Below are positions 28,277-58,021 of a stretch of DNA of 64,000 nt, one piece after another; positions within the stretch are counted from its first letter, which is position 1, and the number at the start of each line of letters is the position of its first letter. The DNA lies in assembly GCA_044892525.1 (NCBI GenBank), contig CM097885.1, positions 19,718,001 to 19,782,000 of the forward strand, written 5' to 3'. The notes beneath the pieces are model-generated. The model made no database searches. It saw nothing but the letters and a program-made list of their open reading frames with translations, and was not told the DNA's origin. This DNA is from Schmidtea polychroa (lineage: Eukaryota). The translations under genes and the position numbers were made by a program.

Positions 28277-28586
28277 TCAATTCTTACATTGAGATTCCTC
28301 AAAGGTTATCGTTCCAATCATTTTATTTCATTGTTCGATAGCTCATTTTAAAGCTTAGTGCAAGACCTTTCGAATGAGCTATTGAAGGTATCATCATCAT
28401 TAATATTGACAAAGTTATTATCGTTTTCCCGAGACCATTTTCAAGGTCATTTAATTATTATTATTATTAGTATTAATCTATATACTCCGAGTTTATCCGA
28501 CAAAATATTTTGTCCCCCTATGGGTAATGCTCGTAAGGGTACTGGTCAACTCGCAAGGGTATTATTAAACAAATCAATAAAACACA

Positions 28587-34700: not shown

Positions 34701-37700
34701 ACAAACTTCTCTATAAAAACTTTTCTTTTTAGAAGTATAAGATAATGAAACTATTTCAGTTAAGAAACCATCAGCCACAGAAATACTTCCAAGTATTACA
34801 GGTGCAAGAGTAACAACTGGTAAAGTTATGGGTAAAATAACTGTTAATATTGCAGATGCAAATCCTAAAGAATAACCTATAACTTTTAAAACTGTATTCC
34901 CTTTATTCCATCTATTTTTAATTTTTTTATAATGCTTTAATAAATCTTGTAAATGTAAGGTTTCTGATTTAAATTCTTTTACTCTCATAATTTCAAGTTC
35001 TGTGGGAGCCGAGGCCTTGGAAGAATAATATCCTGATGATCTCAATTCTGGGTAAATATTTTCTTCTCTTACTTCTTCCATTTTAATAATTAAAAAAATA
35101 AGACTTTATTCTTCTGAGCACCATCTGGCACCAATACTCGGATATCAAAAGAAACTCTTGTTGAGAGGATATCTTTATACAATTCTCTCAATGCTTTACG
35201 AACTTCATCAACATCAACCTTTTTTTCATAAAATATTAAATCTATATATTGTACAAGTGAACTAGAGAAATGAATATTCTTACTTTTAACTTTATGTAGT
35301 CCATGTGAATGAGTATTAACATACCAATCTCCGTGTGGTAAATCATAACTAGTCATTATAACATCACCCTTTTCAAGCTTACTATTATAATCACATTTCA
35401 CAAACCATTTCATTCTTTCATTATCATCATCAAACAAAAAGAAATAAGGATCAATAATTTTTACAACCATAAAAACACCCCATTCTTTACTGTTTGTTGT
35501 TATTAAACTTGGTTCTATAAAATGTTTATATGTATGGGGTAATAATGTTTTATTCTGTTCTAATTCAGCAGCTCTTTTTCTAATACTATGTGTGGTGTTA
35601 ATGTGTGTTCCATGAGACTCTAAATTTGAAATTCTTTTATTAAATGATGTAATCATCTCATTTATTATTTTATATATTGTATTAAATTTAGTATTCATAA
35701 TTTGTTTATCTTTAGAATTTAATATAGCAGTATTTAACTTTACAACTTGTTCAGTTAACAGACTTTGTAACTTGTCAAATTTATCATTAAATCGTTGTTC
35801 GATATTATTAAGCTTTGATTCCATTGAATCAATTTTTGTTGTTAATGAACTTTCAATTCTTGTTGTTGTTAAATCAGTATATTTTTTAACACCATCTACA
35901 TATTTCTTATTAACTGCATCAGCTTCATCAGTTGGAAAAGATAATTCTTTTATCTTGTGTCCATTTAAAATTAAATCACCCTTCATTGAATCACCTCTTT
36001 CATTAATATATTTATTTTCTGTTAAAGTTAATATTTCTTCTGTATTAAACCCTGTTTTTATTGTTCCACCACCTCTATTACATGGAATATAAGAACTCAT
36101 TTATTAATAATTTAAAATGAATCTTCAAACTTGTTTCAAATGTAAATACATTGAAATCTCTTCTCCATTAAAATCAATCAATTCTCCTTCTTGATTAAGA
36201 ATTTTAAAATTAATATCCATAATATATTTTCTACATAAAGGTAAATAATTTGGAGGATTCATTCTTTCAACTATTTTATATCCCATAGGAACTGTGTTTG
36301 AGGGAAAGGAATATAAAACATTTGTTTGTTTACCATTATTATAAGAACCTGTTATACAATCGCAATGAATATTTATTGTGTTTGTATTTATTATTTTTAT
36401 AATATGTTCTGATGTTATTATTTTATCTTCTTTTATTGTTATATCCATAGGTTTAAATCCTAAAACTGTGTGAAAGAAACAATTATCTAAAAAACTAATT
36501 TTTATATTCTTCAAAGTCATTACACATTTTGAAGTTGGTATATCCATTTTAATTTTAATACCTTCATTTGTTTTTTTAGAAAGTATATCATTTAAATCTT
36601 TTATCTCATATGTCCCAGGTTCTATTGTTATAATTTCTGGTTTATGATCATCACGAGTTTGAATAGTAAATTTATTATTATCTTTAGTTATATTAAAAAT
36701 AGTATTATAAGCACAAAACCATAATAGCCCCAATTCATAATTTAAATTTTGATCTAATTTAATTGAATCTTGAAAGTTTATAGTAAACTCTGATTCTTTT
36801 GAATTTATAGATAAAGTTCTTGAATATTTATCTGACATTATGTTTACCATTTTTTTTAAATTATCTTCCGGAGGGTTGTGAAGCTCCATTTCTTTAGTAG
36901 TAAATTCATATAGTAAAAATCCTTATAGTAAAAATCCTTATAGTAGAGATTCTAGATCATTATAAATTTCTTGAATTATAGATTCAAAATCCTGCGTATG
37001 CCCCTTTCCCTCTCCCTTATTCAATCTATACAAAACATATAAACTTAAAATACCACATATTTTAGTATTCAAAGGTTGAACTTGTAAAGAGTTAAAAGTA
37101 TAACCATTTGGGGAATCAATCGGAGAACCCCTCAAGAGATAATCTTCAACTTCTTTAGTAGGTTTAATCCCAAAAGAATCAAAGTAGATAGATTTCTTAT
37201 ATATACAAACCCAATGAGATCCTTTTTCATTTGAATTTTGATAATTGATTATTATATTCAGGGGACTCTCCAGACTTGATAATTCATCATTCATTAATAT
37301 TTTAATTTTTAAATTTAAATAATTTGCATAATCTTTTAAATCAAAATTTGTTTTTGCATTTATTCCAAATGTTTTTAAAAAATCTAATATTGAAGGAGTC
37401 ATTTTGTATTTTAAAACTTCGTATTTATAACTTCGTATACTTATTAAATTTATCTTTTGAAATTATTCCTTGTTTTAACAAATCTTTAGAAATCTTTAAA
37501 ATATCAGAATCTAAATTATTATGTTCTGCTTTCCTTGCAGCTAATAGTTTTCTTAATTCAATAAAAAGATTGATGGGATTTGGTTTACCACCTTCACTAA
37601 TTAATCCCTCTCCCTCTGTAACAACATAACCCTTTTCATTTTTATTTAAATAATTCTTTAAATCTTGAATATATTTTGCTTTAGAACTAGCTCTTATTAA

Positions 37701-40700
37701 TCTTATTAAATTTAAATATTTTTTAATTTCTTCAACATCATCTGAAGAATATCCACAAAGTAATCTATAAAAATCATCTGTAAATTCAAAGTCTAAATAT
37801 TCATTATTATAAACATTTTGTGAATGAATACGTGATTTATTTTCTGAATTTTAATATAAAGTAAAGTTTTGTTTATTAATTGTTATTATTTGATATCCTT
37901 CAGTATTAGTATTAAATGTGGGTCTAATTGAAGGAGGTAAATCATCTCTAATTTTAGGATCAACTTTAAGAGGTTTTGTTTTTAAAACATTTCTTCTTCT
38001 TCCACATTAGAAATTCTTCTGCGTTTTCTTTGATTTCTTTCAGAATGGTTTTCACTGGATTCTTTTTCTTTATCCTGCCACTCTAGTTCTTTTATTTTTT
38101 GTTTTTTATCTTCTAACTCTTTAAATTTTGCTTGCTCATTGAAATCTTCCAACTCTTTTATAGCTTTAATTGTTGGCCCCTGTTGTTGTGTTATTACCTC
38201 ATTTAATATTATAGATTCAGCATGTTGAGTTGTATCTTTTTTATTATATTTATCTTGTTCTGATTGTAATTTTTTTAAAAGTGCTAATCTTTCTTCATAT
38301 ACCATTTTAATGGTATCAAAAATGGTATCATAGTTCGAAGGGCTTCAAGTATAATCCTTTACCATTTTTAGTTTTACAAAGGCATCCATTCTTTAAAGAT
38401 TTACATATTTTTTTTAAATCTTCTTTATCTTTTGAAGATAAAGATTCAGAAGTAGAAATTTGATTTTTTAAAAAATCATTTAAACCTCTACCTTTATAAG
38501 GATCAAGATAGAGACCTTTGCCCTGAGACTTTTGCCGACTCCCCTCATATGGATTAAGATAGAGACCCTTTCCAACGGACACTCCCCCTTTAGCTTGCCC
38601 TACCTTCTTCATTGAATCGATTTCAGTTTGTAGTTTTTCTTTTTCTAGATTCTTTAGCTTTTTGAACTGTAGTTGCAATTCCTCCAGCTATTCCAGCAGC
38701 ACCTGATAAACCAGCAATGATTGCAGGTATTAAAGCAGCTAATGGAAGAATGCCACCTTCTTTAGCTTCGTGGAGCTTCGCTCTAACTTGTTCTTTTACA
38801 TGTTTTCCAATAAAATATTTTTTACCATCATTTACTACTGATTTATTTTTATTTGAATTTATTAATTCTTGCAAAGATTCTTCAGTTGTCATTTTATAAT
38901 AAACAAAATGGATGTTTGGAAACCAATTTTAAATAGACATAAGAGTAAATTTAATAATAAAGTATTTCCTGATAATTTTAGATTATTAATTGTTGGTTCT
39001 TCTGGATGTGGAAAGAATGTACTTGTTTTGAGAATGTTACTTGAAGATGATTTTTTAGATTATAATAATTTAATCTTTTATTCTACAACCATAAATCAAC
39101 CAGAATTACAACTTTTGAAATGTGGATTTGAAAATAAATTAACTAAAAAAGCAATAATTGATATTTTTAAAAATCAACATAGGTGTCCTGAAGAAGTTTT
39201 TCAACCTTGTGATATGGTTGATTGGCATAAGGAAAAGATTTTAGAATCAGATATTAGTAATAAAAATGATTATATTTGTGAAGAAGGGCAGGAGGCAATT
39301 CAAGTTTTATTCTCTAATAAACCTGAAGATGTTTTACATTGTGATTTACTTCCTAAAGATAAAAAGAATCTAGTTATATTTGATGATGTTGTTAATATGA
39401 AAAATCAAGAGATTCAAAAGAGTTACTTTACACGAGGTCGACATAATAATTGTAATGTTATTTATATATCTCAAACATATTATGCTTTAGATAAAAATTC
39501 AATAAGAAATAATTCCAATTGTTTTATATTTTTTAAATTAGATCGCCGTGATAAGAATATGATTTATAATGATTTATTTTCAAATGTTGAACCTGATAAG
39601 AATATGTTTGATATGTTTGTTGATAATCATTGGAAAGAAAAATATAATTATATTTATTTGGATAGAGAAGAAGCTGAAATATGGAAAAGTTTGTTTTAGG
39701 GCTTGTCGACTTAAAAATCTGTTTTCTGTAGTTCATTATTATAAAATCTACCTAATATTTTTTCATTATTTAAATCAAAGATGCTATATGTTATTGGAGT
39801 TGTATAATGTATTTTATTTATAATAAAAATTTCATTTGTCCATCTTGCTGTGAATCCTTTTTCAAATTTATTTTTATATTTAAATATTCTTACTCGGTCA
39901 CCAATTTTAAACTTTGGTTTTTCAATAACATCATTTTCAATATTTACCACTTTAATGGTTTCAGGCTTCATGGAAGCATTTAAAGGTGTTAATTTTATAG
40001 AACTATGTACATCATTATTATATTCATTTACAATCTTTTGTAACAATTCATTATTCCATTTTTGTTTTCCAATAGCAGTAAAATATTTCCACATTTTATT
40101 TTTTAATGTTCTATTTAATCTTTCAACTACGACTGCTTTTCCTTCGTTTTCTGTTGAATATAATTTAATATCATTTTCATTTAAAAACTTTGTAAAAACT
40201 TTGTTATAAAATTCTGTTCCTTTATCACACCATAAATATTTTGGGATTCTTTGATTTTCTTCAAATATATTTTCAAATGCTTCTGTAATAGAATATCCTG
40301 TTTTATTTTCTAAACATCTTGCAGAAGCAAATCTTGTATATAAATCTATTACAGTTAAAATTATTTTATATTTTTCAGGGTCTGATGATTTGGGCATAAA
40401 GACTAAATCTGCAGACCATGTTTGATCTTTTTCATGTACTTGAACTTTTAAATATTTTTTATTTTTTCTAAATTCATGGTGTAATTCCTTTGCATATTTT
40501 ATTTCTGATTCTGTTGGGGTTTGTAAACTAGTCTTGGCTGTACTCTCGAGGGATCTTTCAATCTCTGCTTGTTCGATAATCTTTTTATAAGCAACATCTT
40601 TTGCTTTCCTAGGAAGTCTTGCACCCATGGTGATCGGACTGTGTCCTAAGCCTATGAAAATCTTACCTTTCATTGCTAATTTAACTAGAGCTCTTTGAAT

Positions 40701-43700
40701 CTTTTCTTGGGTTGATGGATTTTGGATACTATTTAAATCATGTATTAAATTCACATCTGCAACATGTCTATCTCTAAGATTTGTTGAATTGTATGCAATG
40801 TCATGTTTTAAAGCTGCTTGATCAATTCTATTTATTGGTTCTTCTCCTTGTTTGGGATTATTATTTTCATCTAATCTAATATCTAGACGTGTTCCTGGTC
40901 CAGTATAGTTGTGTTTAAATAAATGTCTTTCACCTGGATATTTTTCTGTAGTAAAAGGTTTTAATATTGAAGATGTTGTTTTTGAAGATTGCAAATCGCC
41001 TCCAGCTCGTGGAATTAGGTCACCTACTGTATGTTTTTTAGTTTTAAGATGACTTGGTTTATGATGTCTTGTAACTTGACAATTACAAGTTTCACATCTC
41101 CAATAGGGTTTATTTAAAGACATTTTAAAATGTCAAAATATCAGGGATTATATCAAGAATCTCCCCTAACATTTTCGATTATTGAAATCTTTCCACCATA
41201 TAATTTCATTTCTATTTTCTTTTCTTCTAATATTAATGTATATACTTTAGCTTTAAAATTAGAATCCTTTGTTACATGAAGTGTAACATCAACATTATTT
41301 ATGGCTAATCGATCATCTTGGTCTGATACATTTATACAAAATATAGAATATAAATTTTTGAAATCTTCTAAACTTAATTGCGGTTCAACATTGAAATCAT
41401 AACATGTTTCAATATAATTTAGATATGGGAATATGTTTTCATTATTTTCAATATTAAATTCCATTCTATTTATTGGATAATAAGAACTATTTAATTGAAT
41501 TTGGATTGTTTTTAAATTATCATCTCCAATCTTTTGAATAAATAGATTGTTATTTTTTTGGAAAGATGAATCTGTTTCTTTGAATCCAATCAAGATATAT
41601 CTTGGTCGGTATGCTAAATTTGCTACCTTTATAGAATATGTTGAACCCTCTGTCATACTAAATTCACTACAGATTCTATTTAAATAATTTACATTTATAG
41701 ACTTGTTGGAATTTAATCTTTCAAGGAGTTTGATTTCAGAATGTGGGTTTAATGTCCATTCAGGTATATGTAATTCAAGTGTTGATAATTTTAATTTAGC
41801 TTTTGTATCTACAGCTCCATAGAACAATCTTTTATCACCTTCTACTCTATTACAGATGAATTCTATAAAAACATTATGAAGTATACGATTATAGTTTTGA
41901 AGGAATCCAAACAAGTGTTTTAATTCAAAATAACCTTCAAATTTTTTAGATTTATAAAGTTCAGCTCTTTTATGGTAACCATGGTTTACATCTAAACCAT
42001 CTTTATCTAAATCCCCTTTATTAACATCAGGAATCCAACCTGTTAATTCACCATATTCGTTTTTATAATCACAACCAGTCAAAATAAAATTTAACATTGT
42101 AGAATATACTCCCGGATGCAAAACAGTTTCAATTTCTGATGATCCTAGTTTTAATCTCATGTTGGAGAATAAATTTGGAAAGAAATTATTTTCTAGGGTT
42201 ATATCTTTGTTTGCTTCAATTTCTAATTCGATTTTATAATATAATTTGGCATTACAAATATCTATAGGGTTTGATGTTTGAAGAGATTGAAAAACTATAT
42301 CACCCCTACGATTTAAGTTTGCAATAGATCCTGAAATTGGAGAGATTTTTAAAATATCATTTTTTTTAATTTCATGAGTAAATTCTTTATTATAATCAAG
42401 ATTTAATTTATTTTTTTCTTGAATTTTAAGATTTATGTTATTCATTTTTATATATTAAAATTTACACACACACAATAGGATTAATTAAATATATTATGTA
42501 AGCCATTATAGCGGAGTGGGAATAGGCTTCAATTTTATCACCGGGAGTACCGGGTTCAATTTTCGATTTTGGTCAATTTTTTTCGATATTTTTTTTCAAC
42601 GGAATCTGATTCAGCGTACTGATTTTAGTATATATTTAAATTTTCAGATCGATCTGAGTGGTAGTTGTCGAGAAAATGAATAATTAATTATTAATTTCAT
42701 CAATAAATAGTCACACATTAACAACTTATTTTATATTGAGTATAGCTTAGTGGTAATAGCACTCGACTGCATTGCCAATACCAATGGGTTCAAATCCCAT
42801 TTCGGTCATTTTTTTCAAATTTTTTTTTAACGAAATATTGATCAGCATACTCGATTTAGTACTTGTACAAATTTTTAAGGAGATTGGTCAACGGCAACCT
42901 GTCTTTCGAACACCCCCGGATCGATCCCGGTAATGTGCACATTTATTTCTCGGTTGTTTTCGGACCTCTTTCGGATTCGCTTTCGAATTCATTTGTACTT
43001 TCGAGCAGCACACTTAAAACGCCGATGAAATCGTATTCGAGCGAGAAGCGAATAATAAGGTGTGCTGCTATTATCGAATTGATTCTGATTATGAGCCTGG
43101 CCAGCTTGTATATTGGAAGAGATTTGATAAACGAAAGAGGTTGAATAAAAAAAAAATGATCCGGATCAAAAAAAACTGTTGAGGGGACAGTGAAAAAAAA
43201 AAAAAAAAAAATACCACTGTCCCCTCAGAGCAGTTTTACTATTTTTCATTTATTTTTTAATTTATATAATTTAAAATCAATAATCTGATAAAGATCAAAT
43301 AGCCCTCTAACTTTTTCATAATGCCATTTTCTTTTCTATTCTCTTTTTAGTTTGAAGCTTTTGAGTTTGAGGCTTTAAAGATTAAAACAGTTAGAGTCAT
43401 TAAGGGTGGTTGTTTTCAAAATATAGGGTTAAAATACTATAAAAGTATAAGTTTTAGGTTGTTTTTCTAATAGCTTAAGTGATTTGGAGGCATGTTTTTG
43501 TTGGGGGGCTGTTTTGGTTGGGTGGAGATAGAATCCCTGAACATATCGATTATCAGCAAATGATGGAGATAGAATCCCTGAACATATCGATTATCAGCAA
43601 ATGATGGAGATAGAATCCCTGGAAACCAAGAAGTATTACTTCAATAGAATATTTCAGTGTCTTTTCGATGAAGACATGAAATGGACAAGGATAATTGTAG

Positions 43701-44000
43701 GATTCACCTACATGAAGATAATCATAGAAAAAAGTTTATAGGACTCCGAGCACTATTATCAGTGGTCTTTAGAAGTAAGATTTCTTTTATAATCTACATT
43801 TTAATAATATTAATTTCTAGATAATCAAGTCCAAGTTTACCCCATGGATAGAAGCCAATGGCGGATGGGGTGTATTAAATAAACTGGCCTGCAATTTTAA
43901 AGAAACTGATGAAATCAAAAGAAAAATGAAAAACTATATAAAACTTACAACTGGAGTTGTTATAATGTATATTTTCTGTAGATATATGAATAAAAATTAA
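28786..44000 (+). CDS. Bcl-2-family protein of P2; exon 1 28786-29082, exon 2 43821-44000; P3 sits in the intron
   Basis: BH1-like LFDEDMKWTRIIVGFTY, BH2-like PWIEANGGW, C-terminal hydrophobic tail LTTGVVIMYIF. The phase-0 GT..AG join gives 158 aa. Confidence 0.8.
29909..29990 (-). ncRNA. tRNA-like Pol III-type unit 1 (P3)
   Basis: A box TAGCGCAGTGG, B box GGTTCAAATC, T8 terminator. No convincing anticodon stem. Confidence 0.55.
30057..34390 (+). CDS. polB: Protein-primed DNA polymerase B of P3 with N-terminal zinc fingers (one frameshift near 30600)
   Basis: C2H2 CNICNKVFKNKTGLISHLKSKAH. Motifs LYGDFES, IFHNLFGYD, KGIYPY, YIDATALY, KILNNSVFGK and MDTDS. The frame of 30812-34390 is open back to ~30595. 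Confidence 0.92.
34485..35081 (-). CDS. P3 membrane-associated protein with central hydrophobic hairpin
   Basis: 198-aa ORF with hydrophobic segment VIGYSLGFASAILTVILPITLPVVTLAPVILG. Function unknown. Confidence 0.7.
   Translation of the reverse strand: MEEVREENIYPELRSSGYYSSKASAPTELEIMRVKEFKSETLHLQDLLKHYKKIKNRWNKGNTVLKVIGYSLGFASAILTVILPITLPVVTLAPVILGSISVADGFLTEIVSLSYTSKKKSFYREVCLSIELGISKLFLFQLKALEDGILTDEEIMKSNQIIQDIKNEVIRLKREGMVANVISNKKTSREKWLKNSYL
35090..36100 (-). CDS. P3 fibre-like/coiled-coil virion protein
   Basis: GDSMKGDLILNGHKI..DEADAVNKKYVD fibre-type motif followed by a coiled coil. Confidence 0.6.
   Translation of the reverse strand: MSSYIPCNRGGGTIKTGFNTEEILTLTENKYINERGDSMKGDLILNGHKIKELSFPTDEADAVNKKYVDGVKKYTDLTTTRIESSLTTKIDSMESKLNNIEQRFNDKFDKLQSLLTEQVVKLNTAILNSKDKQIMNTKFNTIYKIINEMITSFNKRISNLESHGTHINTTHSIRKRAAELEQNKTLLPHTYKHFIEPSLITTNSKEWGVFMVVKIIDPYFFLFDDDNERMKWFVKCDYNSKLEKGDVIMTSYDLPHGDWYVNTHSHGLHKVKSKNIHFSSSLVQYIDLIFYEKKVDVDEVRKALRELYKDILSTRVSFDIRVLVPDGAQKNKVLFF
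36125..36889 (-). CDS. P3 minor capsid protein (penton-like)
   Basis: YNTIFNI, IEPGTYEI, INIHCDCITGSY..VLYSF and IDFNGEEISMYLHLK. Confidence 0.8.
   Translation of the reverse strand: MELHNPPEDNLKKMVNIMSDKYSRTLSINSKESEFTINFQDSIKLDQNLNYELGLLWFCAYNTIFNITKDNNKFTIQTRDDHKPEIITIEPGTYEIKDLNDILSKKTNEGIKIKMDIPTSKCVMTLKNIKISFLDNCFFHTVLGFKPMDITIKEDKIITSEHIIKIINTNTINIHCDCITGSYNNGKQTNVLYSFPSNTVPMGYKIVERMNPPNYLPLCRKYIMDINFKILNQEGELIDFNGEEISMYLHLKQV
36938..37402 (-). CDS. P3 adenain-type cysteine protease
   Basis: GSHWVC, YFDSFG, Q..CG catalytic pattern. Confidence 0.9.
   Translation of the reverse strand: MTPSILDFLKTFGINAKTNFDLKDYANYLNLKIKILMNDELSSLESPLNIIINYQNSNEKGSHWVCIYKKSIYFDSFGIKPTKEVEDYLLRGSPIDSPNGYTFNSLQVQPLNTKICGILSLYVLYRLNKGEGKGHTQDFESIIQEIYNDLESLL
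37410..38305 (-). pseudogene. P3 ORF of unknown function, disrupted
   Basis: ORF 37982-38305 continues through a frameshift and stop to ..LRKLLAARKAEHNN..LLKQGIISK. Confidence 0.55.
38328..38892 (-). pseudogene. P3 core/membrane-lytic precursor-like protein (frameshift near 38650)
   Basis: KEGGILPLAALIPAIIAGL and repeated GKGLYL, consistent with adenain-cleaved virion proteins. Confidence 0.6.
38908..39699 (+). CDS. P3 A32/FtsK-like DNA packaging ATPase
   Basis: Walker A IVGSSGCGKN, Walker B LVIFDD, FTRGRHNNCNVIYISQ. Confidence 0.92.
   Translation: MDVWKPILNRHKSKFNNKVFPDNFRLLIVGSSGCGKNVLVLRMLLEDDFLDYNNLIFYSTTINQPELQLLKCGFENKLTKKAIIDIFKNQHRCPEEVFQPCDMVDWHKEKILESDISNKNDYICEEGQEAIQVLFSNKPEDVLHCDLLPKDKKNLVIFDDVVNMKNQEIQKSYFTRGRHNNCNVIYISQTYYALDKNSIRNNSNCFIFFKLDRRDKNMIYNDLFSNVEPDKNMFDMFVDNHWKEKYNYIYLDREEAEIWKSLF
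39711..41123 (-). CDS. int: P3 zinc finger-phospholipase A2-retroviral-type integrase fusion
   Basis: NYTGPGT..NRIDQAALKHDIAY (parvoviral-type PLA2) followed by WSADL, WCDKGTEFY and VERLNRTLK (DDE core). Confidence 0.9.
   Translation of the reverse strand: MSLNKPYWRCETCNCQVTRHHKPSHLKTKKHTVGDLIPRAGGDLQSSKTTSSILKPFTTEKYPGERHLFKHNYTGPGTRLDIRLDENNNPKQGEEPINRIDQAALKHDIAYNSTNLRDRHVADVNLIHDLNSIQNPSTQEKIQRALVKLAMKGKIFIGLGHSPITMGARLPRKAKDVAYKKIIEQAEIERSLESTAKTSLQTPTESEIKYAKELHHEFRKNKKYLKVQVHEKDQTWSADLVFMPKSSDPEKYKIILTVIDLYTRFASARCLENKTGYSITEAFENIFEENQRIPKYLWCDKGTEFYNKVFTKFLNENDIKLYSTENEGKAVVVERLNRTLKNKMWKYFTAIGKQKWNNELLQKIVNEYNNDVHSSIKLTPLNASMKPETIKVVNIENDVIEKPKFKIGDRVRIFKYKNKFEKGFTARWTNEIFIINKIHYTTPITYSIFDLNNEKILGRFYNNELQKTDF
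41153..42445 (-). CDS. P3 major capsid protein (double jelly-roll)
   Basis: 430 aa. NNFFPNLFS, LKHLFGFL, RPRYILIGF, QLNSSYYP and LYSIFCINVS pattern, plus genomic context. Confidence 0.8.
   Translation of the reverse strand: MNNINLKIQEKNKLNLDYNKEFTHEIKKNDILKISPISGSIANLNRRGDIVFQSLQTSNPIDICNAKLYYKIELEIEANKDITLENNFFPNLFSNMRLKLGSSEIETVLHPGVYSTMLNFILTGCDYKNEYGELTGWIPDVNKGDLDKDGLDVNHGYHKRAELYKSKKFEGYFELKHLFGFLQNYNRILHNVFIEFICNRVEGDKRLFYGAVDTKAKLKLSTLELHIPEWTLNPHSEIKLLERLNSNKSINVNYLNRICSEFSMTEGSTYSIKVANLAYRPRYILIGFKETDSSFQKNNNLFIQKIGDDNLKTIQIQLNSSYYPINRMEFNIENNENIFPYLNYIETCYDFNVEPQLSLEDFKNLYSIFCINVSDQDDRLAINNVDVTLHVTKDSNFKAKVYTLILEEKKIEMKLYGGKISIIENVRGDS
42502..42583 (+). ncRNA. tRNA-like Pol III-type unit 2 (P3)
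   Basis: A box TAGCGGAGTGG, B box GGTTCAATT, T7 terminator. Confidence 0.5.
42735..42815 (+). ncRNA. tRNA-like Pol III-type unit 3 (P3)
   Basis: A box TAGCTTAGTGG, perfect T-arm ATGGG-TTCAAAT-CCCAT, T7 terminator. CTGCATT occupies the anticodon-loop position but its stem is unpaired. Confidence 0.62.
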
Positions 44001-45706: not shown

Positions 45707-46144
45707 TTAGAAATTGACCAATGAAATTATCTCATTTCGAACATTGTCAACAAATTCCCTATACTCCAAATTTCTCAACCCCAGCATGACAACCTTTCCA
45801 CTAGCAAACACGTTGACACATATAGGGTTATATTTTAATAGTCTTAGTGCCGGAAACAATTCCGGTTCAAACATACAATCACATTTTTTCGACATGTTAT
45901 ATAGATTGATACTATGTCCCATATCCATAGTAACGGTAATTGATTGGATTTTAATATTATTTATTCGATATTGTAATTTATTAATATCCAAGGGTTTCTT
46001 ACATCCCATGATTCTACATTTACCAGTCTTGAAAAATATTATCGGGTATTTCCCGCTTCTATCGATAATTTGCTGGGGTTTTCCTGGTGGGAACCTCATA
46101 TTTGTTACATCAAAATTTCCTCGATAATTTATATTTGCTAACAT
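45707..46144 (-). CDS. TBP: P2 TATA-binding-protein-like protein (145 aa)
   Basis: Two TBP repeats: ANI..IIFFKTGKCRIMG and IQSITVT..INL..FEPELFPAL..VNVFASGKVVMLG. Confidence 0.85.
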   Translation of the reverse strand: MLANINYRGNFDVTNMRFPPGKPQQIIDRSGKYPIIFFKTGKCRIMGCKKPLDINKLQYRINNIKIQSITVTMDMGHSINLYNMSKKCDCMFEPELFPALRLLKYNPICVNVFASGKVVMLGLRNLEYREFVDNVRNEIISLVNF

Positions 46145-46247
46145 TATTAAATCATTTATGAAAATTAGTCTTTATATACAAATTAAGTACGAGTTCATTA
46201 AATCATCGAATATAAACAAATACACATATATTTTTAAAATTTTTAAA

Positions 46248-46874
46248 ATGGAATTAAGAAATGATGCAGTATACCAAATCGTTGGTCCGAGTGGTAGTTG
46301 AAAAACATTATTTGTTTGTAAATTACTAAAATCAAATTTATTCAAATCAAAATTCAACAGGATTTATTGGCATAGGGGTGCTGATGAAGAACATGGATTA
46401 ACTCAATCAAGTTTCTGTAAATTAAAAAACATGAAAATAGTAAAGGGATTCGATAAAAACTGGTCCAGCCGATTAAAGAAAGGTGATGTCATTATTATCG
46501 ATGATTTGTATCAAGAAGCTAATAAAGAAAAAGATTTTAATAATTTATTTACAAAGATCAGCAGACATGTCGGTGTTACAGTTATTTTCATAACACAAAA
46601 TCTTTTTCATCAAGGTGGGGCACATCGAACACGTAATTTAAATGTACAATATTTAGTTATTTTCAAGAATCCTAGAGATGCAACAGTGATTGATTTTCTT
46701 GCACGTCAAGCATACCCTAACAATCGTAATTTTCTTATCAGTGCATTTCAAGATGCTACAAAAATACCTCATGGATATATATTTCTTGATTTCACACAAC
46801 AATGTCCCGATGATTTACGAGTAAAAACAGATATTTTCAACCCAAAAGGTGCCATGGTTTATAAACAAATTTGA
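46248..46874 (+). pseudogene. P2 packaging ATPase with a nonsense codon in Walker A
   Basis: MELRNDAVYQIVGPSGS*KT (TGA at 46299), in frame with VIIIDDL, FTKISRH, IFITQNLF and FKNPRD. Confidence 0.9.
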
Positions 46875-46892
46875 AAACCTCTATGAATAATA

Positions 46893-47420
46893 ATGTTTCT
46901 AAAAGCAAGGGTGAAAAATATTAGGAAATTAAGAAAAAGTATTAGAAAGAGTATTAAAGTTCCAAAAGTTCCACCAACAACTAGTTATACACCATCTAAA
47001 AAACTTGTAACTGAAAATTTCTCTGCAATGAATCTTATTTCGAAAAATCCTAAACCTAAACGTAAAACCCGTAAAACTCGTAAAACCGGTAAAAAAGTAG
47101 TTAAAAATCATCGCAGTTTTCCATTTTTTAATGCATTGTTAAAGGCCCCGAGTATGAAAAGAATGAATATATTGCAATCATTCCCAAACTTTGTTGTCGA
47201 TGATTTACTCAATATTATACTTAAAGTAGTCAAAGGCAAAATTAAAATCAGTAAATCAAAAAAGCATTTATTGAGCAAACATAGAAAACCATTGTTATCT
47301 TTAGTAAATAATAAAAATCGTAAGCAAATGAGTAAAATTATATATAAACAACAAGGTGGATTTATTGGTGCATTGATACCTCTGGCATTATCATTATTAG
47401 GTGGGGTTACACAGTCATAA
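46893..47420 (+). CDS. P2 basic core-like protein
   Basis: Very K/R-rich, ending QQGGFIGALIPLALSLLGG (putative protease site plus amphipathic tail). Confidence 0.7.
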   Translation: MFLKARVKNIRKLRKSIRKSIKVPKVPPTTSYTPSKKLVTENFSAMNLISKNPKPKRKTRKTRKTGKKVVKNHRSFPFFNALLKAPSMKRMNILQSFPNFVVDDLLNIILKVVKGKIKISKSKKHLLSKHRKPLLSLVNNKNRKQMSKIIYKQQGGFIGALIPLALSLLGGVTQS

Positions 47421-47423
47421 ACA

Positions 47424-47651
47424 ATGGGTGCTAATCCTTCATTGCCCGACATTAAATTTAATTTTAAATCTTCTTGTTGTAATGGAGAAGATTTGGACGA
47501 ACCCAGAAGACGAAGCCGGTTTCGGTGGAGTGGCAAAATTAAACAAAAGAGTTCCGAATTCGAAAAAAGAAACCCAGAAGTGGTTATCAGATCAGCTTGC
47601 GTACAGTTTGAACAAACCAATGCGGAAAAGATTTCCAACAAGAGCCTATAA
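47424..47651 (+). CDS. P2 small ORF overlapping the integrase start
   Basis: 75 aa starting MGANPS, identical in Q (63482-63709). ATG follows directly after the previous stop. Confidence 0.4.
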   Translation: MGANPSLPDIKFNFKSSCCNGEDLDEPRRRSRFRWSGKIKQKSSEFEKRNPEVVIRSACVQFEQTNAEKISNKSL

Positions 47652-47869
47652 AACATTTGGTATTGACGATTTATGGCAAATGGATTTGATGGAGATGATA
47701 CCCTATTCGAAAATTAACAATGGGAATAAATATATTTTAACATGTATTAATGTATACAGCAGATTTGCACGAGCAATACCAGTCAAGGCAAAATCTGCAG
47801 AAGAAATGTCCAAGGCAATTAATATTTTATTTAAAGATGGACATCCTAATAACTTGCAAACAGATTTAG

Positions 47870-47928
<59 letters not shown>

Positions 47929-48570
47929 GTTATTATTATTTTAGGTAAAGAATTCTACAATAGCAAAGTTAAGCAAATCCTCGATAAACTGAAAATAAAT
48001 CCTTACTCGGTACATTCTCAATACAAAGCTGCCCATGTTGAAAGATTTAATCGAACATTGAGAGATAGATTAAAGAAATTGTTCGTGCATCAAGGGAATA
48101 AAAAATGGGTAAATGCTTTACCGAAAATAATAAAAAGTTATAATCATTCATCACATCGAGGACTGAATGGATTGAGACCGGTTGATATTACATCAAAAAC
48201 ATTCTATTCTAAGAAATCTGTAAAAATTGCAAAACCTAAATATAAACTCGGTGACCATGTTAGAATTAGTAAAATTAGTGCATCACCATTTATTAAAAAT
48301 TTTGATACAAATTGGAGTGATGAAGTCTTTGTAATTTCAAAAATAAATACTAAACAGAATCCTGTAATGTATGTCATCAAAGACAGTGATAATAATATTG
48401 TACAAGGGAAATTTTATGAGCAGGAATTACAAGTCATTCCTCCTCCAAAAGTATTTAGAATTCAAAAAATATTGAAAACTAAAAAGGTCGGCAAGGATAA
48501 ACAATACTATGTCAAATGGCATGGTTATCAAAACCCGTCATGGATATCAGCAAAAGACCTAGTAAAGTGA
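47482..48570 (+). CDS. int: P2 retroviral-type integrase with chromodomain; intron 47870-47944
   Basis: WQMDL, QTDLG|KEFY, VERFNRTL and YYVKWHGY. Confidence 0.92.
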
Positions 48571-49589
48571 ATTTTTATACTATTTTACCGAGCAATAGTT
48601 GTCCATTAATTCATCCAGACAATCAAGCCAGTAAATTCATGGTCAATCTCCAGAATCCGATTTCTTTAAATGGTGACTGGGAAGTTGCACTGCAAGATTT
48701 TACATTCGTGTACAACACATTCCCATTTTATAGTCAATGTAAGATTGATTTCAAAAGGAATATTGTGAAAACATGTAGTGGTATCTTTGTTATCAGTAAT
48801 TATGATAAAACATATCATATTCCGAATCAAATATTAGATTCGCATTGCTATATGTTTTACAAGGAAGGATTAAATATCAGTTGTGATTTTAAACCATTTA
48901 CAATAACATTCGAAACTATTGAAGATGCCAAACGAATGGGTTGCAATAAGTTGAAAAATATTGTTACAGAGACCGAGTATTTATTACGTTTTAATCTATT
49001 TGAAGAAAACAGTGTAATGAAAGAAGAAATCAAAATATCGGTCTCGTATAATGATGAAGTTGAAGAATCATTTACCTTTGCTGATGAATTATATTTTGAT
49101 AAACTCGATGTATTACTTAAATATTTAAAGTTCAATTGTTCACACATATTTAAAAATTTGGAAATTGTGAAAGATTTGATGTTTACCTTCAGTTTGAATG
49201 AGGATATTTGCGAAGTTACATTTGATAAAAATTTGGCAAATTCACTTGGATTAGATAAGCAAAAATATCGAGAAAAATCGACTGGTATACGTAAACCAAG
49301 AATACTAGAACATCATCAACAAATGTTCATATATACTAACATTATCGAACCCATAATTGTTGGTGATTCCAGTGTTCCTCTTTTGAAATCGGTATGGATT
49401 GGAAAATATGAACATGATGAAGTTGTCAATATAAATATCGATAATCCCATGTATTTACCAATAGCAAGTTCATGTATAAACAATATAGAAATAAATATTC
49501 ATGATGATAGTGGAAAACTTATAAACTTTCCAAAAGGTTCAAAAACTCATTTGACATTACATTTTCGTAAAGTAGATGGCAAATTCTGA
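48516..49589 (+). CDS. P2 minor capsid protein (penton-like)
   Basis: FYTILPSNS, WEVAL, FIYTNIIEPIIVGD..PLL and LTLHFRK. The true start may be near 48567. Confidence 0.85.
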   Translation: MAWLSKPVMDISKRPSKVNFYTILPSNSCPLIHPDNQASKFMVNLQNPISLNGDWEVALQDFTFVYNTFPFYSQCKIDFKRNIVKTCSGIFVISNYDKTYHIPNQILDSHCYMFYKEGLNISCDFKPFTITFETIEDAKRMGCNKLKNIVTETEYLLRFNLFEENSVMKEEIKISVSYNDEVEESFTFADELYFDKLDVLLKYLKFNCSHIFKNLEIVKDLMFTFSLNEDICEVTFDKNLANSLGLDKQKYREKSTGIRKPRILEHHQQMFIYTNIIEPIIVGDSSVPLLKSVWIGKYEHDEVVNINIDNPMYLPIASSCINNIEINIHDDSGKLINFPKGSKTHLTLHFRKVDGKF

Positions 49590-49944
49590 TATTATTAGTA
49601 TGTATAGTGGTAGCCAATCTGGCGGTGAATTACCATATTTTATTGGTAAACAGTACGGATCGGGATGGTTGAGAACAATTGGTAGATTTGCATTGCCTAT
49701 TCTTAAACGTATTGGTAGTTTTGGTATGAAAACTGCAAAAGATGTTATTATGAATGAACAGAAAATATTACCATCTCTAAAAACAAATGCTTTAGCTGAA
49801 TTAGGGAAAGTTTTACCAGGGGTTGCAGGTATGTTTCAAAAAGAAAAATCTTCAGCTCCAGCTCATGCTCCAAAACGTAAAAGACATGGAATATCACGTA
49901 TAAACAAACGAATGAAAGGACATGGAACTATATTTGCAAAATGA
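49576..49944 (+). CDS. P2 small virion protein with amphipathic helix
   Basis: QYGSGWLRTIGRFALPILKRIG and a basic tail. Occupies the usual position before the capsid gene. Confidence 0.75.
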   Translation: MANSDIISMYSGSQSGGELPYFIGKQYGSGWLRTIGRFALPILKRIGSFGMKTAKDVIMNEQKILPSLKTNALAELGKVLPGVAGMFQKEKSSAPAHAPKRKRHGISRINKRMKGHGTIFAK

Positions 49945-51133
49945 TTTGTGGTAATTCTGAATTATGTATATTTGATAGACCATCGCCCCAGGCTGTAATA
50001 GAATTTGGGGCATTTGAGGAAGTTTTTCCTATGAATTCAATTACCGATAGTAGAAATGATATAGAGTTTTATATTAATGGTTCGCAAACTGAATATTTAG
50101 ATTTGAACGATACTTTATTGACTGTTCAGATCAAGGTTGTAGATAGAGATAGAAAGGTTTTGGATGCCAATGGAGATGTATTACCAAACAATTTCATGTT
50201 TCATACTCTGTTTAAAGATGCAGTGTTGGGATTTAATAATATTAAGATTGAGGGCGGAAATAATACATTCATTCACAAGGCATTAATAGAAACTATTTTA
50301 AATTACAATTCTGATACTAAAAATACCTGTCTTACACCTATGGGTTATGCAGCAACAGATGATGAAAGAAAAAAGTGGGTTAAAGGCTCAAAAATATTCA
50401 CCATGTGCTCTTCATTACAACTCGATTTTATGGATCAACCGAAATATTTGCTACCAGGAGTTAATGTACACATTAGATTGAAAAGGTCCGATTCTGCATT
50501 ATCTCTTACTAGTGCAACTGGTGCACCAATATGTCAATTAGTTGATGCAAAATTATTGGTGAGAAGAGTTCGAGTGGACCCCTCAGTATTAGCTGGTCAT
50601 CAATTGGGTCTTAATTCAAAACATGCAATTTACTATTGCTAAAAGGTGCTTCATCATTCTATAAAGAACAAATATTTGGTGACAGAAGAATGCCTTATTT
50701 TATTCTGATAACATTTCAAAGTGAAACACAATATAATGGATCATATACTGCTTCCAGCTCAATTTTCAAAAACTTTAATGTTACATCATTGACTTTGTCG
50801 AAAAATACTGATTATAGAGAAACATATATTCAAGATTTCGAGAATGACAATTACTGTGCGACATATATGCAGAGTATTGTTAGAAATCTGGGTTATTTAG
50901 ATAAAAATTTGAATTGCGGAATAACTCTAGAAGATTTTAAAAGCAAATACCCATTTTTTACATTTGTTTTAGCCCCTGATTTTGATTTAAATCAAAGTCA
51001 ATTACCTCAAAATGGAAATTTACGACTGGATATAATGTTTGCAAAAGCTATTACTGAACCAGTACATGTTATAATATATGGAGTATTTGAAAATGAAGTT
51101 CAAATTACTGCAAATAGAACAGTGTTGGTATAA
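49941..51133 (+). pseudogene. P2 major capsid protein (frameshift or deletion near 50635)
   Basis: SELCIFD, IEFYING..YLDLNDT, QPKYLLPGVNVHIRL, GNLRLDIMFAKA..VIIYGVFEN. Confidence 0.88.
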
Positions 51134-51563
51134 ATGTATATTGAAACACAAAAAGTTGTCATGGAGTAAGTTGTTTTTTATACTCTGGATTTATTTAAGT
51201 AGTTCTGTTCAGGTCAATAAAATCGGAAAACAGATGTTGGGAAATGAATTTGCTGGAGTTTTTCCTCTTGATAAAATTCCATATTTGAGCAATAATCAAG
51301 CAATAATCGTCAATACTCAATCGTCTCATCTTGGTGGAGAACATTGGATAGCTATATACGTTAAACCTGGTAATATATTAGTGTTCGATCCTATGGGTTT
51401 TTATTACCCGGCTTTGTTGATATCAAAACTACAAACAATGGGAAAACCTATTGTGTATAATAAAACTATGTTTCAAAATCCATTGACCCAAACATGTGGT
51501 CAACATTGTTTAGCTTGGTTATTGTACAAAAAATTTGATGTTTTAAGAAAAATGGATGTTTAA
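51133..51563 (+). CDS. P2 adenain-type cysteine protease
   Basis: FAGVFPLD, NTQSSHLGGEHWIA, FDPMG and Q..TCGQHC. Confidence 0.9.
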
Positions 51564-53688: not shown

Positions 53689-56600
53689 GTAAATTATATC
53701 GCAAATATTGCCAATCTTCAATAGGCCATTCCAATTTATGCCATAAGACCATGAAAAAATACTACGGTCATAGATTCTATGGCATCAACTACTATATTTG
53801 TCCCATATGCGAGACATCCCAAAATATAAAATATAAGTGTTTTTATATGACCCATAAGACTCATCTTAACCAGTAAACAATAAATAAAAAGAAACTTTTT
53901 AATAAAATAAAAAGTAAAACACCTGCAAATAATACACATGTAAATAATAATTCGCGACCTATAACAAAAACTGCAAATATTAGACATGTAAATAATAATT
54001 CGCGACCTATAACAAAAACTGTAAATAATACACATGTAAATAATAATTCGCGACCTATAACAAAAACTGCAAATATTAGACATGTAAATAATAATTCGCG
54101 ACCTATAACAAAAACTGTAAATAATACACATGTAAATAATAATTCGCGACCTATAACAAAAACTGTAAATAATACACATGTAAATAATAATTCGCGACCT
54201 ATTACAAAAACTGCAAATATTAGACATGTAAATAATAATTCGCGACCTATAACAAAAAATATCTCTACAAATACTTCGCCCGTGATTATATCTTCTCCAG
54301 TGAATATAACTGCTTCTGTGATAAAACCTTCTGTGATAAATAATAAACGGCCTGCTGTTAGTTTTGGGTCTGGTATTCCCTCTAAAATCATTAAAATTAA
54401 TACAACTGGTGATTCCGTATATAATCAAATAGGTGGTTCGATCGACATTAACGATGAACCAGAAATAGAAGTCGATTTTAAGGGAGTGAGAAAAAATTTA
54501 CGCTTTAATATGGAAAAGGATAACTTGGTGCAAATTTCCCTTACAAATAAAATTATAAATAAATTAATTGCCGAAATCAAAGGTATGGGCACAGTTAAAA
54601 TACAATTCACCGTATTGATTCAATTTGAAAAAGATGGGGAAAATAAAGATAATTTTTTCTCTAATAGCGCAGAGGTTTTTTCAGAAAATTTTTTAATTAA
54701 TGGAATCACCAGATTATATAATAAAATTGAAAAATTTACGTATTTGGGTAGCGGATGGCGGGTGGTTAAAATCAAAGAGATAGATTTTATATTAACAAAA
54801 TTTACACATATGAATAGGCTAGCTGGACATAGTTATATCCCCACCCCAGCAGCTTTAAATTCTAAAAAAGCAATAGTAAACGTCAAAAACACTGACGATA
54901 TGTGCTTTATATATAGTATTTTAGCACTGTTAAAACGCAATGTAGTACATATAAATAGAAATCGTGTTAGTTCCTATGAAAATTATCTTGACGAGTTAAA
55001 TTTTGACCCTATAGATGATTGCCCCATGAAATTATGTGATATCCCCAAATTCGAGAGGAAAAATAAAGAATTAAATTTATCAATTAATGTATTAACTTAT
55101 AGGAAAAACCCAGCTAAGCCTATAGAAAACGATGATAGTAACTATATTCCCCATCATCCTCATTTAGATATTATTCACCGATCTAAGGTTATAGGTGGTG
55201 AACCCATATATTTATTATTATTGGAAGACGGTGATAATTTCCATTATACCGCAGTTTTTAACTTACAAAAATTAATGAACTCACATCCCAGTAGCTCCTG
55301 CAACCTTTGGATTAGAGTGAACTGGTGTCCCACTTGCCTTAATGGCTTTAGATATAAAAATGCATTTGATATTCATGTAGGTCTATGCAGTAAGAACCAG
55401 CTAGGCACTACATTATACACCCTACCTAAAGAGAAAAATTTAATTTTTCAAAATTATGCGAAGACAATCACCCCGCCATTCGTGATATATGCCGATTTTG
55501 AGGCAATTTTACCCGAGGATATAATACACCATCAAAAGCACTTGCCAATAACAGCAGGCATGTTATTAATTAATAATTATAATAACACAAAATTTTATTA
55601 TGAGTTTGTTGGTGATGATTGTGTGTTGTCTTTCTTGCGTAAGGTGGAGGAAATTGCTGTCAAAATTGTCCTGCCATATTACGAAATTAATGGGAAAAAG
55701 CCCATGCAAACCTTATCTTTCACTGAAGAGCGGGCTTTTCGAGAATCCAGAACCTGTTACCTTTGTAAAAAATTTATTAGAGATAGAGTTAGGGACCATT
55801 GTCACTTCTCAGGCAAGTATCTTGGTGCTGCTTGTAGGAAATGTAATGTTTCTCGGCGAATTCAGAGACAGTTACCGGTTGTGTTCCATAATTTGAGGGG
55901 GTATGATCTCCATCATATTTTGAAGTATGGCTTGAATAATTTTCCTTCTTGGGAATTAAATATTATTCCGACCACTACAGAAAAATTCATCTCCCTCATT
56001 GCGTATATTAACAAATTACCTGTTCGTTTTATTGACAGCATGCAGTTTGTTAATTCATCTTTAGCAAAAGCGGTTAAGACTCTTTCCGATCTGCCTTTAA
56101 CTTCTTCTGTTTTTGATGGCGCAATTGTTCGAGCCAAAGGTATCTTCCCTTATGACTTCGCTACATCTCTTGAGGTCCTGGAATCAACTCTTGAATTGCC
56201 TCCTATTTGGGATTCTGTGTCTAATGATGAATATGAATTAGCCCAAGTTATTTGGACTCAGCAAAATTGCAACAACATGTTAGATTACATGTTGACTTAC
56301 CTTAAATTAGATGTATTTCTCTTTGCAGACTATTTTCAACAATTCCGTGCGAAGGCCATTGCTTACAATGATCTTGAACCTTTAAATTTCTATGGTATTC
56401 CCGGTATGTCATGGGCCTCAGCACTTATGACATTAACGGAACCCATAGAACTTTTGCAGGACATGGAAATCTTTAATTTCTACGAAGGAGGGATACGGGG
56501 TGGGTTAACATTTGTTAACAAACATTATGTTGCTAGTTCTGAAGACACAGAACTCTTGTATATTGATATAAGTAATTTGTATGGTTGGGCCTTAAGCCAA

Positions 56601-58021
56601 AATCTGCCTTATGCTGACTTTGTATGGGTGAATGATGATTTGGATACTATACTTTCTGAATGTGTGAATGATGATATTGATAACCTTCCTTATGGGTATA
56701 CTATGGAAGTTGATTTCGAAATTCCGGAATGCTTGCATGACTTCCTTAACGACTTTCCTATTGCTGCAGAAAAATGTGTCCACCGAACTCCAAAGTTGAG
56801 AAGCTGATGCTCACGCATTGGCCAAAGAAGAACTATGTTCTTCATTGGAGACTTCTTAAACTTTATCTTTCACTCGGTGTGACGGTGGTTAAAATTTATA
56901 GAGCAGTTAAATTCACGCAAGCACCCATTTTTAAATCGTACATTGATAAAAACACAACATTAAGAGCACAATCCACCAGTGAGTTATATAGAGATTTGTT
57001 TAAGCTTTATAACAACAGCTTATATGGGAAATCCGTTGAGAACTTAAAGAAAAGGATGAATTTGAGGCTATGCAATTCAGCTGAAAAGATGATTGTATAT
57101 GCCTCAAAGCCAACTTTCAAGAAATCAATCAGAATTGATGAGAACTTGATTGCGGCACATCTGAATAAGGACTCTATATGTTTAGACAGACCTAGTTACA
57201 TCGGTCAATCAGTACTAGATCTGTCTAAACTGAGGATGTATGAACTTCAATATAAAGAACTGGCGAAATATAGGACAGAGTTTAATTGCGAAATAAATAT
57301 TGTTGCCGGCGACACTGACTCCTTTTTCTTAGAGATAAAGCACTGTAAGCTTGACACTCTTTTGCCGGCAATGATTCGTGATAATCTTCTAGATACCAGC
57401 AATTATGATCCTGCTCATCCTTTATATTCTAAGAGTTTGGATTCGGTAATAGGGAAGTTTAAGGATGAGAGTAAAGGGCTGGGATATAGCGAGTGGGTTT
57501 TCTTGCGCCCTAAGTGTTATAGTTTGTTAGGAGATAAGGCAGCACTTAGGGCTAAAGGAGTTCAGTTAGGCAACACTGAGATAGGGCACCAGTCATATTT
57601 AGACTGCTACAACAACAGCGTAGTATATACGGTGCCACAAACGAGAATAGGTACAAGAAACCACCAGCTCTTTACTTTTAAAAATAATAAAATAGCCTTG
57701 TCGAACAACGATGACAAGCGCCTTTGGGTGGGTCTTAATACCAGTCTCGCATATGGACATTTTTTAGGAGTCGATGATCCAGATGTTGACCAGGTATCTG
57801 AAGTTGGGCCACTTTTTGGCGGAATGAGTCCGGATTTCGATGATGATGATTGGACCGAATCACAGAACAATACATTTCAAGTTGGACCACTTTTTAGCGA
57901 AATGAGCCCGAGCTTTTGTGATTCTGATGACAATATTGATTTTGATGTAAATATTGATATGAATATTGATGTGAATATTGATAATGACGTCGATATCGAC
58001 GATGTTTTATTAAGCGATTAA
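53689..58021 (+). pseudogene. polB: Protein-primed DNA polymerase B of P2 (stop at 53874, frameshift near 56775)
   Basis: IYADFEA, FHNLRGYD, KGIFPY, YIDISNLYG, KLYNNSLYGK and AGDTDS. Upstream Cys/His segment and 48-bp repeats are in the same frame as 54282. Confidence 0.92.
53929..54258 (+). repeat. 48-bp coding tandem repeat (~7 copies) in P2 pPolB N-terminus
   Basis: Unit encodes HVNNNSRPITKT(A/V)N(IR/NT). Confidence 0.9.

Follow-up and report, generated by a model that had tools for sequence, protein, structure and literature searches.

The locus studied here raises the question of how the capsid genes of animal Polintons get switched on, and we address it with two of its components, i.e. 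a minimal gene for a TATA-binding protein (TBP) of 145 aa (45707..46144, minus strand) and a short box, predicted to be a late promoter, that precedes the virion genes. All coordinates refer to the window, i.e. the whole 64,000-nucleotide stretch of Schmidtea polychroa DNA that was analysed (contig CM097885.1). According to the available text of PMC8097293 and 10.64898/2026.06.19.733378, virions of animal Mavericks/Polintons have never been observed. The original prediction placed the TBP gene in a Polinton and proposed that it encodes either a late-gene initiation factor specific to the element or a dominant-negative for host transcription.

The ORF list of the window gives the gene as one intact reading frame (45707-46144), and the 145-aa ORF, as judged from its sequence and a predicted model, belongs to the TBP fold family without being a canonical TBP. 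Pfam TBP (PF00352) matched it in two stretches at E 1.6e-15 (57.1 bits; cut-off 22.9), and TBP sequences in the PDB were matched at E 2e-11 to 4e-6. The AlphaFold2 model, generated from a 97-row alignment (pLDDT 95.8), has the two-repeat saddle fold; Foldseek ranked TBPs first among PDB structures (best E 1.3e-9), and residues 1-145 of the model correspond to yeast TBP 66-240 (VIA, 1ytb; Z 13.2, rmsd 2.5, 145 aligned). Given this span the protein has no N-terminal extension, and repeat 1 is shortened since helices H1 and H2 are lost. Pfam, AlphaFold2 and VIA hence confirm what had been predicted, i.e. an intact 145-aa ORF with both TBP repeats, a short first repeat and no N-terminal extension, and comparison of an AlphaFold model with TBP, proposed there as a check, recovered the TBP fold. 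In a viral fold search the model gave TBP-like matches from Nucleocytoviricota/mirusviruses down to E 2e-8, and herpes entries were weak (E 4e-3 or worse).

The element that carries the TBP gene (element A) is bounded by a left TIR at 28300..28556 and a right TIR at 60145..60362 and measures 17,646 bp, within the 15-20 kb of Polintons, net of a nested, unrelated Polinton without a TBP gene (element B, 29107..43523), which served as control. The hallmarks of Polintons are present in element A, i.e. TIRs, pPolB, an rve integrase, an A32 ATPase, a cysteine protease and a double jelly-roll major capsid protein (MCP); the ends of the nested window copy showed no clear target-site duplication. The TBP gene lies head-to-head with the gene for the A32-like packaging ATPase (46248..46874, plus strand; Pox_A32 E 0.0098, weak; in-frame stop at codon 18), its ATG at 46248 being separated from the TBP gene by a 103-bp spacer. 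Two sequences stand back to back in this spacer: a canonical TATA box, TATATAAAG, at 46170..46178 on the minus strand (34 nt upstream of the TBP ATG), a host-type and predicted early promoter, and a YATAAACR box, TATAAACA, at 46211..46218 on the plus strand (about -36 relative to the ATPase), a predicted late promoter.

The remaining virion genes follow on the plus strand. A second YATAAACR box lies inside the 3' end of the ATPase gene (46860..46867), before a basic 175-aa ORF without Pfam match (46893..47420), and boxes at 47343-47350 and 47416..47423 precede a short ORF and the rve integrase gene (47482..48570), which has a chromodomain and a poly-Ile simple-repeat stretch. The next ORF (48516..49589, 357 aa, with GATAAACA at 48496) has no Pfam match, and from its position we take it to be a putative minor capsid, or 'penton', gene. 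Boxes at 49475..49482 and 49899..49906 precede ORF 49576-49944 and the double jelly-roll major capsid gene (49941..51133), respectively; the latter is in two pieces in the window copy. The capsid alignment gave no match in a sequence search of the PDB and a weak one in Pfam, and the identification comes from a fold search: the homologue L069, 58-59% identical to the window capsid, folds like the PBCV-1/mavirus capsid (Foldseek E 5e-16). An adenovirus-type cysteine protease gene (51078..51563; Peptidase_C5 3.8e-5), with no ATAAAC in its upstream 120 nt, closes the block, and a family B DNA polymerase gene, in two ORFs in the window copy (54510..58021, plus strand), was recognised from homologue matches, with Pfam weak. 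Among the element ORFs scanned none had a Pfam match to TFIIB, and no RNA polymerase gene was detected in element A; PF00382 had 21 matches genome-wide vs hundreds of elements. The three ORFs neighbouring the TBP gene had no Pfam match, which leaves room for remote homology.

The Bcl-2-like gene of element A (28786..44000, plus strand) is interrupted by element B; its exon 1 (28786-29094) is partly repeated at 43577-43786 and its exon 2 lies at 43821-44000. A host-control module formed by the TBP and Bcl-2 had been proposed, and our data do not bear this out: Bcl-2 was found in none of 80 TBP-bearing metagenome loci (many of them short contigs), its Pfam match in the window (Bcl-2, E 0.0023) is below cut-off, and the gene is broken here. 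It has a short GT..AG intron (43775-43820), and one contig, guessed to be RNA, joins across it, a weak hint; intact vertebrate Mavericks are reported to be without introns in the available text of PMC8097293. Within 21866-64000 of the window Polintons are nested: element B (29107-43523) sits in the Bcl-2-like gene of element A (28300-60362). Related sequences are a PolB arm at 21.9-27.4 kb and an inverted copy at 60.7-64 kb and beyond. Other features of element A include a 139-aa ORF of no known family (44526-44945), present near the TBP gene in many metagenome loci, for which Pfam and the protein atlas gave nothing usable; a CCAAT-type box together with TATAAACA (51977) within 51950-52110, ahead of a small, possibly spliced ORF from 52039; and a charged 273-aa ORF in the right arm (58658-59479), for which six other stretches have no counterpart that exceeds 55% identity and which is possibly a separate insertion.

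The TBP gene is a conserved Polinton gene under purifying selection, and its products form a Polinton-only clade. One 24-mer of the gene has 803 exact copies in the genome (control 0), and the 150 genomic matches that were scored, ranked by similarity from 4168 first-look candidates, are all 98-100% identical and stop-free. At genomic loci retrieved with the ATPase as bait the TBP gene is head-to-head in 30/30 and full length in 28/30, and 20/20 further loci from the list of Pfam TBP matches sit among Polinton genes. Between TBP alleles dN/dS is 0.17-0.32 over 16 measurable pairs (two pairs were saturated), three pairs within alleles gave 0.09, 0.37 and 0.66 with few changes each, and pN/pS is 0.29 among 28 full-length copies. 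In a tree of 58 rows (bootstrap not fully settled at 0.981, root for drawing only) the Polinton TBP family is one clade (100/100), six host TBP rows group with eukaryotic TBPs (98/96), and a giant-virus-like TBP (L031) falls outside the Polinton clade.

These data bear on the possibility that the gene is a decayed, one-off retrocopy of a host TBP gene that hitch-hikes in the element, for which presence and dN/dS across copies and a phylogeny against host TBP had been put forward as checks. The gene is intronless, as a retrocopy would be; however, its product is about 22% identical to the canonical host TBP exon and belongs to a separate clade, and purifying selection acts on a gene found as at least four alleles in the genome and in the best 80 of 182 metagenome loci. 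We regard a retrocopy as next to impossible.

Outside the genome we found 110 relatives (96-232 aa, 37-96% identity), and the TBP family has 112 representatives at E<=1e-10. Among the best 80 of the 182 confirmed metagenome stretches, 37 have a core Polinton gene and 55 a Polinton-associated gene, the other 25 being 1.0-3.1 kb long. Where a metagenome locus has both TBP and ATPase genes (n=25), the ATPase gene is downstream on the same strand in 22, divergent in 2 and otherwise placed in 1. The predicted head-to-head arrangement with the ATPase therefore holds for the window copy with its 103-bp spacer, but it is a trait of particular lineages, as is Bcl-2, and not a general layout. In IMG/VR the TBP-alignment query gave one locus only, the giant-virus-like contig outside the clade, and queries with MCP, ATPase and the ATPase alignment gave none, and hence there are few TBP-independent controls; the protein atlas returned TBP clusters for the query only.

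Within the genome, at least four TBP alleles are 53-62% identical to that of the window, and the adjoining ATPases are 86-97% identical in most cases (G000, L122, L123 and L141-L160). Given this difference, the left arm appears to have been exchanged as a cassette between Polintons. Coevolution of the TBP with the neighbouring ORF 45225 was considered and rejected, as TBPs that are 94-99% identical have neighbours whose identity falls to about 50%. The host itself has at least six TBP-family loci, of which two lack introns, as well as clustered intronless TFIIB-like genes of about 300 aa (both in G000, L112-L118; C1:23.8-24.2 Mb, C3:38-39 Mb).

For the promoter analysis, upstream regions were taken as the 120 nt before automatically chosen starts (some of which are wrong) from the best 80 metagenome loci, nine genomic loci and the window, and de-duplicated at 75%. 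The sequence ATAAAC was first noticed by eye and then counted and shuffled; the independence of the counts is overstated for this reason, and because the sequences are related and were de-duplicated only at 75%. In the block of genes from the ATPase to the protease ATAAAC is present on the sense strand in 73/85 upstream regions vs 6/78 for other genes, the top result among all hexamers, and on the antisense strand in 1/85. Before ATPase genes it occurs in 23/24 regions in sense and in none in antisense orientation (shuffle mean 2.1), mostly at -31 to -49 from the ATG. The frequencies for the other block genes are 8/10 for homologues of ORF-46893, 11/17 for integrases, 10/11 for putative minor capsids, 6/6 for homologues of ORF-49576, 11/11 for major capsids and 4/6 for proteases (shuffle means for block genes, 0.5-2.1). 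TBP genes are at chance level (4/59, shuffle 4.0), and homologues of ORF-44526 and polymerases have ATAAAC in 2/16 and 0/3, respectively. The extended motif is YATAAACR, with Y in 65/72 and R in 71/72; exceptions to the pattern are the protease gene of the window, which lacks the box, and the TBP gene of L089, which has GATAAAC at -63. The 8-mer shows no enrichment over the window as a whole (23 vs 19.2 expected), and the signal of the box is thus positional. The motif search upstream of structural genes that had been suggested with the original prediction hence yielded a common box.

The TBP genes have a different type of upstream sequence. TATAWAWR precedes 26/59 of them (shuffle 4.7), with 33/59 lacking a canonical TATA, and an Inr-like TCANT/TCATW at +22 to +37 follows 18/27 TATA boxes vs 6/73 late boxes. 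From these comparisons of upstream regions we show that TBP-bearing Polintons have two classes of upstream sequence, i.e. TATA (+Inr) for the TBP gene and YATAAACR for the block, which we take as putative promoters. Contigs from four sets, guessed to be RNA, span the TBP gene, the ATPase gene and the spacer, and yielded no start sites.

Conceivably, the box could be a polyadenylation or termination signal, or the by-product of a protein motif, with no role as promoter. TATAAA and CATAAA are variants of the poly(A) signal, and in many cases the box is close to the 3' end of the gene before it, where it reads Tyr-Lys-Gln, Ile-Asn-Lys or His-Lys. It is, however, often within the upstream coding region, ahead of the stop, and it is kept in non-coding DNA before the ATPase gene even where no gene on the same strand precedes it (window, L079, L122). 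Moreover, it occurs in different reading frames and codon choice is biased towards it: Ile-Asn-x sites are spelled as the box in 32/47 cases near ORF ends vs 12/99 internally, and Tyr-Lys-Gln/His sites in 23/25 vs 6/9, which argues that the box in coding DNA is kept at the DNA level. A role of this kind is in our estimate most improbable.

Polintons that lack this TBP family provide some controls. An ATPase-baited scan of prokaryotic assemblies identified five mis-binned Polinton contigs (L201-L205). One of these (L201) has a TBP of the Polinton family and a box at its ATPase gene (-37). In L202, L203 and L204 no TBP was seen and the ATPase genes have no box, and in L203 the box is also missing at the integrase, capsid and protease genes; in the assemblies of L202 and L203 no match to the TBP family was found (four of the five loci were submitted). 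These three TBP-less controls, two of which are from one assembly, are GC-rich (51-56%) and incomplete, and hence a TBP gene could lie off-contig. The fifth contig, L205, has an unrelated TBP, outside the minimal TBP family and with the stirrup glutamates lost, together with a TFIIB of its own, and the box is missing at the ATPase, MCP and protease genes. This 22.9-kb Polinton contig is binned in a bacterial MAG (G003:C86, 11777-13041; also L227-L229), and its divergent 189-aa TBP (Pfam 1.8e-11) is encoded beside a 251-aa TFIIB (repeat 4e-6, zinc ribbon 3e-5). Element B, in which two profiles detected no TBP, has ATAAAC before 1/11 ORFs, i.e. its ATPase gene, at -9, and for the B-type MCP (20 loci, 17 upstream regions, 16 readable) ATAAAC was found in 0/16. 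As a set, the controls are small in number, incomplete, and either GC-rich or distant.

To compare the DNA-binding face we aligned 27 TBPs in Polinton context and a cellular reference of 14 rows; residue numbers are those of the 145-aa protein, N69 being the yeast TBP number of N4. Three of the four DNA-bending or intercalating phenylalanines are kept (F38, F97 and F113, 27/27) and the first intercalating one is replaced by P23 (27/27); the central Asn pair retains N4 (N69) and has S68 as its second member. Specifically, N6, P23, R44, M46 and N111 are invariant in the Polinton set (27/27), the commonest cellular residues being V, F, V, T and L, respectively, and T70 (26/27), R101 (26/27) and S68 (23/27) are nearly so. 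Among these, N6, R44, M46, T70, R101 and N111 stand where cellular TBP has hydrophobic or Thr residues. With one of four Phe (P23) and one of two Asn (S68) lost, the 145-aa TBP may bind DNA poorly.

Other surfaces differ in how well they are preserved. The acidic C-lobe stirrup E93-P-E95-L-F-P is kept (E95 in 27/27, E93 in 25/27), and alignment and model indicate that helices H1 and H2 of repeat 1 of cellular TBP are absent and, with H2, the basic N-lobe surface used by TFIIA, TAF1, Mot1 and Brf1. The available text of PMC7221094 attributes TFIIB binding to the C-lobe glutamates and that of these four factors to the basic N-lobe surface. Deeper members of the family (L089, L095, L099, L104 and L201; 167-179 aa) retain H1 and a shorter H2 and agree with the minimal TBPs in their DNA-face residues and in the box, which suggests that the Polinton TBP family shrank stepwise.

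A protein that retains the TFIIB stirrup and lacks helix H2, one Phe and one Asn might be a decoy, dampening host transcription by sequestering host TFIIB or by blocking TATA promoters of the host. This dominant-negative role, the second one originally proposed, is not favoured by our data, since the DNA face is not degenerated but rebuilt to residues that are invariant in 27/27 Polinton-context TBPs. A decoy needs no such face and leaves the matching box unexplained, and, were it broadly inhibitory, the host would pay a high price for the hundreds of intact copies in its genome; we consider a decoy distinctly unlikely.

Instead, the first proposal, a late-gene initiation factor, is our favoured reading, and YATAAACR is its candidate target box: taking sequence comparison, the predicted model and analogy together, the minimal TBP is probably an element-specific late-promoter TBP that uses host TFIIB and Pol II, like the herpesvirus vTBP. 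At the TBP gene host TFIID would read an ordinary TATA (+Inr) promoter, such that the TBP is made early. The 145-aa protein would then bind YATAAACR before the capsid, packaging and integrase genes, with R44, M46, N6 and P23 facing the 3' half of the box, where its C departs from TATAWAWR; this orientation of the N-lobe residues is one that we assume from TBP-TATA structures. The acidic stirrup (E93, E95) would dock host TFIIB, proposed as partner because the element yielded no TFIIB gene, and thereby recruit RNA polymerase II. Without helix H2 the TBP may escape Mot1/BTAF1, TAF1, TFIIA and Brf1, and given this loss and late boxes without initiator, late initiation would be TFIID-independent. 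The predicted net effect is an early-to-late switch for the virion and integrase genes.

Alternatively, the box could be a real promoter element that is read by a host factor, i.e. TBP, a TBP paralogue or a forkhead protein, with the Polinton TBP doing other work, e.g. binding to termini or an origin. TATAAAC is TATA-box-like and one base away from TATAAAA, and therefore host TBP or one of the at least six, in several cases divergent, host TBP-family loci could read it. The forkhead site is RYAAAYA, which overlaps YATAAACR, and ATAAACA fits this consensus. On the other hand, the strand bias (73 sense vs 1 antisense of 85) and narrow position argue for a core-promoter element and not an enhancer-type site, and the box has C at its first position in 21/72 and G at its last in 10/72. 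The box also tracks the Polinton TBP family in the few controls, and the same invariant polar face accompanies the same box in elements that are about 40% identical in their ATPases. A host reader is thus unlikely in our judgement.

If the Polinton TBP is indeed the reader, a dedicated TBP and a matching late box would amount to a programmed gene cascade on host Pol II that needs no helper virus. On a broader view, about which we are evenly divided, a widespread clade of animal-type Polintons would run its own early/late cascade by means of one orthogonal 145-aa TBP that reads YATAAACR, borrows TFIIB and Pol II and bypasses TFIID/TFIIA/Mot1, as an independently evolved single-protein equivalent of the six-protein herpesvirus late complex; these elements would be helper-independent nuclear viruses, and a second lineage would have used TBP plus TFIIB. 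The Polinton TBP is also a natural experiment on the TBP core, which here is shorter by about 30 residues, lacks the regulator surface and has exchanged its DNA contacts; it might be of use as an orthogonal promoter factor. As the genome holds about 800 copies of one allele group, leaky expression could matter for the host.

A viral TBP with a private late promoter is a known kind of system that, in the literature searched, is not described for Polintons, and the parallel is mechanistically suggestive. The available text of PMC8097293 lists eight core Polinton genes, TBP not among them, in agreement with the original prediction; yet a 'TBP' label is present in the legend to Fig. 5 of PMC8502044, as available, which covers MELD viruses with adintovirus-like PolB from non-animal datasets. 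This entry indicates a Polinton-related TBP-like gene, and the legend gives no family, residues, box or mechanism; the available text of the preprint (10.1101/697771) has the same abbreviation, and one supplement file of PMC8502044 (3,999,981 characters, possibly incomplete) contains neither 'TBP' nor 'TATA'. In the portions available, PMC8097293 has no 'TATA', 10.64898/2026.06.19.733378 no 'TBP' and PMC7221094 no 'Polinton', and PMC6431247 and PMC8532177 add nothing further on TBP. Our search for Polinton TBP, TFIIB or promoter motifs found no description of this TBP family, the box or the promoter classes, and figures, Repbase or supplements may note the gene.

With its TIRs, pPolB, rve integrase, A32 ATPase, protease, double jelly-roll capsid and 17.6 kb, element A resembles other Polintons/Mavericks (Polintoviricetes, adintovirus). 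Its TBP shares with cellular TBP the two-repeat saddle (Z 13.2 over 145 residues), the EPELFP stirrup, three of four Phe and the first Asn, and differs in the loss of H1/H2, in a hydrophobic DNA face turned into N, R, M, S, T, R and N, and in an overall identity of about 25%. Like the TBPs of Nucleocytoviricota/mirusviruses it is a viral TBP whose regulatory N-lobe surface has diverged; according to the available text of PMC7221094, however, viral TBPs mostly vary at the stirrup glutamates and these viruses mostly encode their own TFIIB, whereas in the Polinton element the stirrup is kept and no TFIIB was detected.

The closest parallel in working is the vTBP of beta/gamma-herpesviruses (KSHV ORF24, EBV BcRF1, HCMV UL87; TATTWAA), in which a viral TBP fold has a polar DNA face; for KSHV ORF24 this face goes with a variant TATA box (PMC6541308 and 10.1101/2025.08.25.672222, available text). 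Both systems have a one-base TATA variant before structural genes, and the use of host Pol II is by analogy predicted for the Polinton. As to spacing, YATAAACR is mostly at -31 to -49 from the ATPase ATG, with the ATG and not a start site as reference in this comparison with herpes-type boxes, which sit about 30 bp ahead of start sites. No sequence kinship with herpesvirus vTBP was seen, and the likeness is one of working and not of membership. In the available text of the same two sources, ORF24 is large and made of several domains, binds Pol II on its own, depends on five partners, lacks the TFIIB glutamates and needs one Phe that the Polinton TBP has lost; the Polinton TBP, in contrast, is a bare 145-aa core without a Pol II-binding domain that keeps the glutamates and is accompanied by its own box, YATAAACR.
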